From: a virus
IMG/VR virus record: IMGVR_UViG_3300013936_000003
Coordinates: 1 to 61,121 of that record
DNA length: 61,121 nt
Reading direction: 5' to 3' (one strand)
Below, one piece after another: positions 15,527-15,985 of the stretch (within the stretch, counting starts at the first letter, position 1; every line of letters starts with the position of its first letter). The notes beneath the pieces are model-generated. The model had not been told where the DNA came from, ran no database searches, and worked only from the letters and a program-made list of their open reading frames with translations. The translations under genes and the position numbers were made by a program.

Positions 15527-15534
15527 TACCTTTG
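15527..15534 (+). promoter_or_regulatory. -7 box TACCTTTG, divergent from the repressor gene
   Basis: Matches TAnnTTTG. Confidence 0.5.
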
Positions 15535-15540
15535 CAATAC

Positions 15541-15985
15541 CAACATACATACAAAGAAACCAACACACAAATATAGCAATTATTTGCGTGGTTTGCAAGA
15601 GGTTGGGAAAATATTCGCCCGGGTGTGGGAGACTGCTAACGGGCACAAGTCCTCGCCAGAGGAGATAGTCCCTTGACATAGTTTATTGCTTGTAACCATG
15701 CCGAAACGTGGGCACAAGACAAGCGAGATTGCGACTGCGAAGTAACCGCAAGCGCCACGACCCCGAAAGGGCGAGCGCAAATCCAATAAGGTAACGCCCG
15801 AGGGCGGCGAACAAGGCAGCAACGCACAGCACACGGCAGCGCTGTGAGCCTGCCGTCATTCAGAGCGGCGTGAGGTCCGCTCAGTGTAACGTTATGACTA
15901 CGTTTTCATAATTGTATATATAATGTGTTAAGGCTGCGTGAGTGCTTAAGACACGCATCAGCGAGCGAGACGCTGCGCAGCCCCT
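15541..15985 (+). ncRNA. candidate structured RNA, or a very long structured 5' leader (~440 nt, no credible ORF)
   Basis: Hairpins at 15696..15711, 15729..15751 (GCGA loop), 15762..15771 (GAAA loop), 15833..15856, 15863..15882 and 15932..15982; GGGCACAAG occurs twice. Confidence 0.45.

Follow-up and report, generated by a model that had tools for sequence, protein, structure and literature searches.

Temperate phages of the Bacteroidota are major members of the human gut virome, and to our knowledge almost nothing is known about their regulation. In the DNA analysed here (61,121 nucleotides of the IMG/VR virus record IMGVR_UViG_3300013936_000003, hereafter called the window), a gut Bacteroidota-type temperate phage carries the repressor gene on one side and the first early gene on the other side of a long interval, and the question is what this interval encodes and what it does at the genetic switch. 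It had originally been described as a multi-helix leader without ORFs that is unusually long and ornate and separates the repressor-divergent promoter from the first rightward gene, a description that our data support. Comparative folding of seven lineages places a leader RNA at 15579-15985 of the plus strand, of which about 350-410 nt are conserved and which comprises at least ten helices. The comparisons below show that approximately this region encodes a structured RNA that is read from the plus strand. This RNA most likely controls the reading of the early (lytic) operon.

The switch region

The predicted early promoter contains a Bacteroidota-type -7 box, TACCTTTG, at 15527-15534 of the plus strand, and transcription presumably starts near 15541-15545. 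The box was already part of the original prediction, and its TAnnTTTG match is kept in every relative, either in this form or as TACTTTTG or TAACTTTG. Face-to-face with it lies the putative -7 box of the repressor gene, TATATTTG, at 15568-15575 of the minus strand, which would drive leftward transcription and whose plus strand sequence ACAAATATAG is invariant across all lineages. A repeat search revealed inverted repeats within 15500-15567 that bracket the rightward -7 box. The 11-nt arms TGTGTTGGTTT (15500-15510) and AAACCAACACA (15557-15567) are 100% complementary, and 15497-15511 is 80% complementary to AATACCAACATACAT (15536-15550); these operator-like repeats are probably operators. The 5' end of the leader (15540-15578, plus strand) overlaps the leftward promoter. 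It is C/A-rich, G-poor, and unstructured, contains two tandem 20-nt ACCAACA... repeats, and seems to resemble a Rho-loading (rut) site.

On sequence grounds, the leader is an obligatory 5' part of the predicted early rightward operon, the sole rightward Bacteroidota-type box upstream of it being that at 15527-15534. The next TAnnTTTG on the plus strand is found at 16559-16566 inside the gene of a 76-aa protein, where it could be an internal promoter, and it is the only one before the start of the ERF gene at 18743. The 3' end of the leader is situated 3 nt upstream of the ATG at 15986, which, as originally proposed, is the first credible start codon. The 64-aa ORF beginning there has homologs and, in addition, a PHROG match (phrog_21219, 7e-16).

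The leader is not a protein-coding gene

The interval had been called GC-rich, and its G+C content is indeed 54-60%, combined with a strong A>T skew (AT skew up to +0.42). A conserved small ORF had been named as an alternative cause of any conservation, but no ORF within 15579-15985 is common to the seven lineages. The 93 variable columns of the leader are distributed over the three phases as 34/27/32 and thus lack codon periodicity, and 1-nt indels are so frequent that every frame is broken. The statement that plus strand ORFs have 15 codons or fewer holds for those starting with ATG, the sole example within the leader being a 15-codon ORF at 15699-15746 that is missing in two of the lineages (L021 and L029). 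It does not hold for two mechanical ORFs of 51-55 aa starting with GTG/TTG at 15501 and 15521, which is upstream of the presumed transcription start. The even phases of the substitutions, the frequent 1-nt indels, and the missing common ORF speak strongly against the leader being a protein-coding gene. Stop-codon recoding, a leader peptide, and coding potential were likewise rejected as explanations.

Other features of the sequence are less informative. The 9-mer GGGCACAAG does occur twice, at 15641 and 15710, but relatives do not retain the second copy, and any 450 nt should contain about 0.4 repeats of this kind by chance alone. The repeat is therefore not meaningful. The folding energy differs from that of shuffled sequences with z values of -2.4 on the plus and -2.9 on the minus strand. 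Because this signal is weak and alike on both strands, the case for structure rests on the comparative data.

Conservation and covariation

The comparison set consists of seven related phage and prophage lineages from gut assemblies, which were fetched via the 64-aa, the repressor, and the 75-aa proteins. Compared pairwise, the lineages have a mean identity of 0.889 over the leader and of 0.91-0.94 over its core, and the sliding identity profile peaks with 0.98 at 15800-15849. In the flanking genes, the third codon positions have identities of 0.51-0.77 and the first and second positions together of 0.86-0.97. Purifying selection thus constrains the leader to the same degree as the amino-acid-determining codon positions of the neighbouring genes. 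Free variation without compensatory changes would have spoken against the original prediction, but this is not what the lineages show. The 400-nt leader also evolves more slowly than the adjoining repressor gene, which implies an RNA-level layer in the switch.

Compensatory double changes were found for eight base pairs in the helices P1, P3, P5, and P8, compared with 0-1 in partner-shifted controls. In domain 1, 99.1% of the cells are paired and five pairs show double changes (slid partners 0-1), and in domain 2 the respective numbers are 99.2% and three pairs (slid partners 0). The GNRA loops of three hairpins are kept despite sequence change. Among the paired cells of all tested helices there are 44 G-U against a single A-C, and the structure thus belongs to the plus strand RNA. 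Synteny around the leader is identical in every lineage, and the leader is intact even in a 3-kb prophage remnant (L026). The seven lineages are, however, mosaics of one another, also within the leader region, and the number of independent compensatory events behind the eight pairs is therefore small. Part of the leader conservation could also derive from recent recombinational spread.

Helices of the leader RNA

All helices are read from the plus strand. The 5'-most hairpin P0 (15579-15603) has nine pairs, four of them G-U, with 96.8% of the cells paired. Three pairs vary one-sidedly (C-G to U-G, G-U to A-U) and none shows a double change. The conservation of P0 might also stem from the -33 region of the leftward promoter. 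In P1 (15617-15644), an internal loop separates a 5-bp stem from a 4-bp stem with a GNRA cap (GAGA, GUGA, or GGGA), and 100% of the cells are paired. Compensatory changes are present at 15620/15641 (U-A to C-G) and at 15626/15635 (U-G, G-C, C-G). The P2 hairpin (15650-15663; UCCUC-GCCA-GAGGA) lies in about 45 near-invariant nucleotides (15640-15681), the last of which read GUCCCUUGACAUA; because it is invariant, covariation neither supports nor contradicts it. A helix had been proposed at 15696-15711. There is a helix in this place, which is better drawn as 15699-15702/15711-15714 and constitutes the inner stem of P3 (15688-15724), enclosed by the covarying outer stem GCUUGU/ACAAGC (15688-15693/15719-15724). 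P3 is paired in 100% of the cells and has compensatory changes at 15691/15721, 15693/15719, and 15699/15714.

P4 (15730-15750) can be drawn in two ways. In one model it is a local hairpin whose loop is GCGA (GNRA), and in the other it provides the 5' strands of long-range helices with 15807-15826, which would close a multi-stem junction. The originally proposed hairpin at 15729-15751 is compatible with the data but invariant, and RNAalifold prefers the long-range alternative. Both models are 100% paired, and the region is invariant save for one C to U change that gives a G-U pair in either, so that they cannot be separated. P5 (15752-15778) has a GCGC/GCGC stem, a purine-rich internal loop, and the predicted CCC-GAAA-GGG hairpin at 15762-15771. 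The hairpin is supported by two compensatory C-G to U-A changes (15762/15771 and 15763/15770), and its loop is GAAA or GUAA. The following core (15779-15832) is invariant in all lineages except for 15793-15794 and includes the P6 hairpin (15795-15806; CGCC-CGAG-GGCG), which is flanked by the A-rich joiners AAAUCCAAUAAGGUAA and GCGAACAAGGCAGCAACGCACAGCAC.

P7 (15833-15856) comprises the 7-bp stem that had been seen before and a 3-bp inner stem. It is 100% paired. Its stem variation is limited to a single pair that is G-C in some lineages and G-U in others, whereas nucleotide 15845 in the loop is free to vary. P8 (15863-15882), also proposed earlier, is a 6-bp hairpin with an 8-nt loop in which a compensatory A-U to G-C change at 15864/15881 was found. 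P9 (15892-15931) is a weak A/U hairpin (15892-15897/15906-15911; 92.9% paired) followed by the AU spacer (15912-15931), a variable, indel-rich, and poorly conserved segment between the core and P10. The sequence UGUGUUAAGG (15924-15933) may pair over a long distance with CCUUGACAUA (15671-15680), of which only 4-6 bp hold across the lineages.

The original prediction had drawn 15932-15982 as an outer stem around two alternative inner hairpins. The data fit a three-way junction, P10, with a 7-bp closing stem, a 3-bp hairpin, and a 5-bp hairpin, both with 7-nt loops. The 5-bp hairpin stacks directly on the 3' strand of the closing stem, and CCCU leads from there to the AUG. None of the 15 stem pairs varies, there are no double changes, and variation is confined to loops or junctions, among them the palindromic loop CUUAAG (15945-15950), which is the only one in the element and is not conserved. 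By inspection, the geometry of P10 resembles a tRNA acceptor/T-arm minihelix; neither a tRNA covariance model nor ARAGORN gave a match at 15932-15982. Altogether, the element might contain one or two multistem junctions, and no pseudoknot in it is supported.

Distribution of the leader

The leader belongs to no family of Rfam 15. A search of the whole window with its covariance models, which include GOLLD, ROOL, riboswitches, RNase P, tmRNA, 6S, group I/II introns, and small ribozymes, gave zero matches at gathering thresholds. With permissive filters (E<=10) nothing overlapped 15605-15985, and the sole match was that of Chlorobi-RRM to 15549-15604 of the minus strand, which scored 13.6 bits compared with a threshold of 45 (E=6.6). 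A blastn search of the region against 50,697 phage records yielded no match, and scans of IMG/VR, GTDB representative genomes, and JGI metagenomes with motif pairs and 16-mers, which as exact patterns are blind to diverged copies, yielded only chance matches as checked by blastn. Protein-anchored retrieval provided the seven mosaic lineages of one clade and one sister clade. In this retrieval and the scans, the RNA was found only at one fixed leader position in a narrow phage clade.

The sister clade (L001/L061) has a different non-coding stretch in this place; it includes a tRNA (Rfam 49.6 bits) that directly precedes the homolog of the 64-aa gene. The specific RNA is therefore not indispensable to the operon layout. 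We rejected the stretch of the sister clade (L001/L061/L063) as a demonstrable homolog, because the nhmmer matches were collinear but insignificant (E=0.25 and 22) and the covariance model R1 matched only a hairpin with 12.7 bits (E=0.13). This model did not match the Bacteroides phages that encode a homolog of the 75-aa protein (BS-TP3, BF1-TP2, and Dulem virus 40) either.

The early operon downstream of the leader

The first early gene (15986-16180, plus strand) encodes the 64-aa protein, for which AlphaFold2 predicts a small alpha/beta fold with a pLDDT of 84. Since the model has no significant match in the PDB (best E 0.25), its structure gives no mechanistic clue. The 64-aa, 75-aa, and 76-aa early proteins do not belong to any Pfam family. 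Directly after the fourth early gene, encoding a DUF3276 protein, there is a conserved, terminator-like, G+C-rich hairpin (17094-17119, plus strand) whose stem CCGCC(C/U)...(G/A)GGCGG includes a compensatory change. It is followed by a U-run (TTTTT or TTTTTT) in four of five lineages and by a degenerate CUUCC in the window. Beyond it, the genes for recombination and replication are found (ERF, exonuclease, SSB, NinB, and helicase).

The tRNA-like modules that had been noticed downstream are real structured elements, at least one of them with strong covariation. The element at 17128-17188 (plus strand) lacks a D-arm and has a 7-bp acceptor, one arm, and the T-arm GAGGTTCGACACCTC; its acceptor reads GCCGCAU/AUGCGGC or UCCUCCG/CGGGAGGA. 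The operon contains four such modules bearing a T-arm, the other three being located at 16708-16783, 17334-17407, and 17577-17669. They are separate elements of the same operon and no evidence for a GOLLD- or ROOL-type RNA.

Possible functions of the leader RNA

By analogy with HK022 put and conAn2, we favour a cis-acting leader of the early operon with processive antitermination as the preferred mechanism, a reading to which we assign a probability of about 40%. The RNA would act in cis on early-operon expression. The leader would fold while being transcribed and remain with the RNA polymerase, either unaided or together with one of the small early proteins, so that transcription could survive the 440-nt untranslated, Rho-exposed leader and the polymerase could read through the 17094-17119 hairpin into the recombination and replication genes. 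P10, which abuts the AUG, may in addition act as a processing site or set the translation of the first gene. The leader is located where an antiterminator would be expected, starting about 10 nt after the -7 box and lying upstream of the conserved terminator-like hairpin. A need for antitermination is suggested by this hairpin with its U-run in four of five lineages and by the C/A-rich, G-poor 5' end, whereas the degenerate CUUCC in the window and the possible internal promoter at 16559-16566 argue against it. We found no sequence or structural similarity of the leader to any known antiterminator. It is unlikely that the leader represents an undescribed class of large RNAs that would, unaided or jointly with a small early protein, reprogram the Bacteroidota RNA polymerase for processive antitermination at the switch, combined with a tRNA-minihelix-like module whose cleavage would release the RNA and leave a near-leaderless mRNA of the first gene. 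If true, no RNA-based antiterminator would have been described before outside the Proteobacteria and Firmicutes, and tRNA-like punctuation would have a new use in phage operons.

It could also be possible, although it is not the expected outcome, that the leader is the precursor of a stable, trans-acting, GOLLD/ROOL-like ncRNA of about 300-350 nt (P1-P9). This would be cut at the AU spacer or P10 by RNase E, P, or Z and might then serve as a scaffold, decoy, or anti-defence RNA, with its target in the host or the phage. The at least ten helices, the three conserved GNRA loops, and the near-invariant A-rich joiners suggest a tertiary fold or a binding surface. The indel-rich AU spacer splits the core from P10, which is acceptor/T-arm-like and in whose equivalent place the sister clade has a tRNA. 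In addition, the leader is intact in the 3-kb prophage remnant, and GOLLD and ROOL are likewise associated with prophages and tRNAs (PMC5737381). However, the RNA was never found away from this one leader position, with no copy revealed by the motif scans of IMG/VR, GTDB representatives, and JGI metagenomes, and inside the leader we found neither an own promoter nor a convincing terminator. Complementarity to the rest of the phage is missing as well: between 15540-15990 and the rest of the window there is no direct or inverted match of >=13 nt, and the six 12-mer matches compare with about three expected by chance. Finally, covariance models reveal no likeness to GOLLD, ROOL, or any other Rfam family.

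Quite unlikely is a sensor or translational control of the first early gene, possibly a Cro-like decision gene. Here, refolding upon binding of a ligand or protein or upon a change of temperature, such as 15671-15680/15924-15933 against P10, would gate the start codon and bias lysis versus lysogeny. Translation in Bacteroidota depends on unstructured A-rich initiation regions and not on Shine-Dalgarno sequences. Only 3 nt separate P10 from the AUG, the first two bases of P10 are also part of the possible long-range pairing, and the element is located exactly at the genetic switch, all of which would suit such a control. Against this, known riboswitches and thermometers are far smaller than this RNA with its ten helices and about 400 nt, there is no Rfam riboswitch match, and the alternative pairing is kept as 4-6 bp only. 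Moreover, the stems of P10 do not vary, and we found no evidence for a pair of conserved folds that exclude each other.

Very improbable is that the conservation is historical or resides at the DNA level (protein-binding array, origin, recombination hotspot) and that the RNA structure is incidental. The mosaicism within the leader region itself, the overlap of P0 with the likely -33 region of the leftward promoter, and a folding energy only modestly better than that of shuffled sequences and equal on both strands would fit this assumption. It is hard to reconcile with the 44:1 asymmetry of G-U to A-C, the eight compensatory pairs with clean slid controls, the GNRA loops that survive substitutions, and the gathering of variation in predicted loops, and the search for iterons and repeats was negative both for 15600-15985 and for the remainder of the window. 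It is hardly credible that the region encodes an overlooked protein or small peptides, whichever strand is considered. The stop-free minus-strand stretches of 85-135 codons in all lineages and the 15-codon ATG ORF on the plus strand could be quoted in favour, but the open minus-strand frames follow from the T-poor plus strand, two frames are open simultaneously, 1-nt indels at 15646, 15665, 15703, 15715, 15760, and 15863 shift these frames, the substitutions lack a 3-nt periodicity, and the ATG at 15699 is absent in two lineages.

If the leader is an antiterminator, as we prefer, or a sensor, it would establish a new class of regulatory RNAs in a phylum with unusual transcription and translation signals and offer a handle on prophage induction. 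As a stable ornate RNA, by contrast, it would be a compact, alignable, and experimentally tractable addition to the few large bacterial RNAs of unknown function. Either way it is a well-defined candidate with specified ends, strand, helices, and invariant joiners.

Comparison with known systems

Among the large RNAs, ROOL has about 580 nt compared with about 350-410 nt here, and GOLLD is larger than ROOL. Both are associated with prophages and tRNAs, and their contexts vary across several phyla (PMC5737381). They contain several multistem junctions as well as pseudoknots and assemble into homo-oligomers of RNA alone. The leader shares with them a large size, possible multiple junctions, and the prophage setting near tRNA or tRNA-like genes (PMC5737381; PMC12286853), here in the form of tRNA-like modules in the same operon, but it occupies a single fixed mRNA-leader position in one narrow clade. 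A kinship with GOLLD and ROOL, as considered in the original prediction, is therefore not upheld, given the smaller size, the restricted distribution, and the lack of any model match at E<=10.

The immunity RNAs of P4 (CI) and of P1 and P7 (c4) have about 70-80 nt, are processed from an operon leader by RNase P, and pair with repeated targets in the same transcript. As in these phages, the immunity region has an operon whose untranslated leader harbours a structured RNA, and P10 would be a plausible tRNA-like processing signal. In contrast, no complementarity of >=13 nt is found within the window, and the phage has a conventional CI-type protein repressor.

RNA-based antiterminators acting in cis occur at the start of long mobile-element operons (PMC8191782), with HK022 put as an example from phages (PMC9378689). 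In this temperate phage, the putL and putR RNAs immediately follow the early promoters, which is the same genome position as that of the leader. They act in cis and render the RNA polymerase terminator-resistant without a phage protein, and here, too, there is no recognisable N-like protein. With about 70 nt and two stem-loops, put is five to six times smaller than the leader and not homologous to it, and EAR has about 120 nt, so that the leader matches neither in size and architecture.

The conAn2 element belongs to the bipartite conAn antitermination system of pLS20 and other conjugative plasmids from Gram-positives, where an intergenic region of 383 bp adjoining the gene of a small protein encodes it (PMC8191782). 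Compared by description, it belongs to another host phylum and another type of element. The order differs as well, since conAn1 lies upstream of conAn2 but the small gene of the phage lies downstream of the RNA. Furthermore, conAn2 is AT-rich with two mapped stem-loops, whereas the phage leader is G+C-rich with at least ten helices and, by analogy, a candidate antiterminator. Both have in common a non-coding region of similar size near the start of a long mobile-element operon and adjoining a small protein gene, a promoter under a divergently encoded repressor, and downstream terminators to be read through.

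Genomic setting

The window represents a temperate phage with promoter boxes of the Bacteroidota type, and gut-associated assemblies contain a near-identical 62-kb contig as well as many fragments of 99.2-100% identity, all but one of at least 99.8%. The minus strand encodes an integrase (13066-14274), a 200-aa protein (14489-15091), and a 115-aa HTH repressor (15088-15435; HTH_3 4e-8, weak Phage_CI_repr). After a gap of 550 nt the plus strand continues with a 64-aa (start 15986), a 75-aa (start 16177), and a 76-aa gene (start 16423), followed by a DUF3276 protein gene (16805-17050), a tyrosine recombinase gene (17670-18659), and, farther right, ERF, an exonuclease-like protein, SSB, NinB, and an SNF2 helicase. 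In the integrated copy on contig L021 the host genes abut at window-equivalent 14395, which places the putative attachment site between the integrase and 200-aa genes (14300-14395). With the site at this position the window is probably a circular or excised-form assembly and not a host-flanked prophage. Two further contigs, L016 and L017, match the window at about 99.9% identity as far as 16959, a position within the DUF3276 gene. Beyond it they run into unrelated sequence whose opposite strand encodes a protein longer than 250 aa; they represent a recombinant variant or else a chimeric assembly.

The rightward -7 box TACCTTTG (15527-15534, plus strand) fits the Bacteroidota consensus TAnnTTTG. 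All relatives retain both this box and the leftward box TATATTTG (15575-15568, minus strand), so the early promoter and that of the repressor are oriented head-on, and some 20 nt separate their presumed starts. The layout of 15497-15578 is reminiscent of coliphages 186 and P2, whose switch is built on convergent pR and pL. The rightward box sits between inverted repeats TGTGTTGGTTT/AAACCAACACA that look operator-like, and the same 15497-15578 region holds three TRTGTTGGT half-site copies and two tandem 20-nt ACCAACA repeats. The next plus-strand TAnnTTTG is found only at 16559, and thus the transcript of the 64-aa gene must start near 15541 and the whole interval is leader.

Relatives and conservation of the leader

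The 64-aa protein and the repressor each fall into only five 90% clusters among 5.8 billion proteins, and the contigs of these clusters supplied the relatives of the leader region. Seven distinct versions were found (the window, L021-25, L026, L027/28, L029/30, L064, and L071) together with a truncated eighth, L065, and the order of repressor, gap of about 550 nt, and 64-aa gene is constant in all of them. Part of the relatives are integrated prophages, and L026 and L065 are remnants of about 3 kb flanked by host genes. The L026 remnant (4403-7452, window-equivalent 14383-17440), with a host Rce1-like gene on one side and DUF4251/gyrA genes on the other, retains the genes for the 200-aa protein, the repressor, the 64-aa protein, and DUF3276 together with the leader RNA and the tRNA-like element at 17334-17407. 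In L065 the remnant is cut within the leader, at about window position 15851. As the right end of the remnant coincides with the tRNA-like element, this element may be an attachment-site relic.

Mean pairwise identity across five lineages is 0.889 for the whole leader (15575-15985), 0.910 for the core 15640-15885, and 0.940 for 15726-15862, and the sliding profile reaches its maximum of 0.98 at 15800-15849. Over some 70 nt, AGCGCAAAUCCAAUAAGGU..CGCCCGAGGGCGGCGAACAAGGCAGCAACGCACAGCACACGGCAGCGCUG, all versions are alike except at two positions. The promoter region reaches 0.73, the first and second codon positions of the neighbouring genes 0.86-0.97, and third codon positions 0.63 (repressor and 64-aa gene), 0.67 (DUF3276), and 0.51 (200-aa gene).

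Fold of the leader RNA

The folding energy signal is weak and the same on both strands (z -2.4 and -2.9), and the case for a structure is therefore built on the relatives. In domain 1 (15575-15730, model-fitted alignment), 99.1% of 230 cells pair and five pairs have changed on both sides, while sliding the 3' partner by 1-3 columns gives 0-1 such pairs and 38-49% pairing. In domain 2 (15726-15886, plain MAFFT alignment), 99.2% of the cells pair with double changes at three pairs, and at none once the partner is slid. The compensatory changes affect eight pairs, 15620/15641, 15626/15635, 15691/15721, 15693/15719, 15699/15714, 15762/15771, 15763/15770, and 15864/15881, although the lineages are related and their leaders mosaics of one another, so that independent events are few. 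Among the leader lineages, covariation is absent in helices P2, P4, P6, P7, and P10 (numbered 5' to 3'). All stem pairs of P10, the three-way junction forming the 3' domain (15932-15982), are invariant, and its variable positions are confined to loops and junctions. GNRA loops are kept in three hairpins (GAGA/GUGA/GGGA; GCGA; GAAA/GUAA), of which the invariant GCGA counts as such only if P4 is a local hairpin; an equally good drawing of P4 has long-range helices that close a multistem junction. The probable -33 region of the leftward promoter coincides in part with P0.

Across the tested helices P0-P10 there are 44 G-U cells and one A-C cell, and one-sided transitions always lead to G-U and never to A-C. 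Thus, the fold belongs to a plus-strand RNA, and with this asymmetry neither a DNA palindrome nor a minus-strand RNA is a likely explanation. The leader is a structured plus-strand RNA under selection and the obligatory leader of the early operon. The original prediction of a structured RNA at the lysis-lysogeny switch has proved genuine on the strength of the relatives, not of the weak folding energy; its analogy to GOLLD and ROOL RNAs was not confirmed, as Rfam 15 contains no match.

Known families and sister clade

Motif scans of IMG/VR, GTDB representatives, and JGI metagenomes yielded chance matches only, and blastn against GenBank phages none. In a sister clade (contigs L001, L061, and L063), whose 64-aa homolog is 31-33% identical, the same location between a 128-aa gene and this homolog is occupied by about 570 nt of different non-coding sequence (L001 2873-3446, minus strand), to which neither nhmmer nor the covariance model of the leader (R1) revealed convincing homology. 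The leader RNA is therefore a new family of narrow known range at one fixed position. Immediately upstream of the homolog, the sister-clade stretch holds a tRNA (49.6 bits in Rfam, no ARAGORN call) with a possible CUA, amber-reading anticodon (...ACUCUAAAAC...). The stretch includes another tRNA-like element, in which the extra arm is long.

tRNA-like modules and recombinase polymorphism

Four tRNA-like modules are found in the early-operon spacers (16708-16783, 17128-17188, 17334-17407, and 17577-17669). All carry the canonical T-arm motif GGTTCGAnnCC, and none is a standard tRNA according to ARAGORN and Rfam. The third is 94% conserved between lineages, and the second covaries strongly in the acceptor stem. 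Several lie immediately upstream of start codons, a placement that might hint at RNase P/Z punctuation of the early operon. The tyrosine recombinase (329 aa, PF00589, 4e-35) starts 0-1 nt 3' of the fourth module and is a presence/absence polymorphism of essentially the ORF alone. It is present in the window and L028 and cleanly absent from L021 and L029 (GGGCACA|GA|GTTAAATAG), and L027 retains about 27 nt of its 5' and 32 nt of its 3' end. Its G+C content of 0.39-0.46 is markedly below that of the surroundings, and one gene caller missed the ORF entirely (L011).

Function of the leader RNA

We infer that the leader RNA acts in cis, and three observations suggest that it controls transcription elongation. 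An untranslated leader of 440 nt with a C/A-rich, G-poor 5' end would be a natural Rho target. A G+C-rich hairpin with a compensatory change directly follows the DUF3276 gene in all lineages, and in four of five a U-run comes next. Past this hairpin, the recombination and replication genes lack their own canonical promoter box; the sole intervening plus-strand box, at 16559, lies inside the 76-aa gene, upstream of the hairpin.

The leader may have a further role in its P10 module. This module consists of a 7-bp stem and a directly stacked 5-bp stem with a 7-nt loop, followed by CCCU-AUG, resembles the D-armless, itself strongly covarying element at 17128-17188, and takes the place of the real tRNA of the sister clade. 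Speculatively, processing at P10 would split the leader RNA from a nearly leaderless mRNA. A processed, stable ncRNA acting in trans, to which such cleavage would be suited, is nevertheless rather unlikely for an RNA found at one fixed position. We consider it less probable still that the leader is a sensor or translational control element of the first gene, next to whose start codon P10 lies. Conservation at the DNA level or for historical reasons is improbable given the G-U to A-C asymmetry, even with leaders that are mosaics. A missed coding sequence can practically be dismissed, because the 93 variable columns are split 34/27/32 by phase without codon periodicity, single-base indels are dispersed across the leader, and no ORF is common to the lineages; the minus strand owes its long frames without stops to the low T content of the plus strand.

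The leader is thus a genuine, well-delimited, previously unclassified structured RNA of striking conservation and architecture at an unusual location. Its weight is limited by the narrow known distribution, the few independent covariation events, and a function inferred from context alone. The putative control of elongation would have counterparts in known systems. Lambdoid phages meet the termination problem of their early operons via N/nut, and HK022 via put RNAs (PMC9378689). Gram-positive conjugative plasmids use conAn: where the operon begins, a large RNA lies in an intergenic region of 383 bp and adjoins the gene of a small protein (PMC8191782). By position and size, the leader RNA is a candidate for such a role in antitermination.
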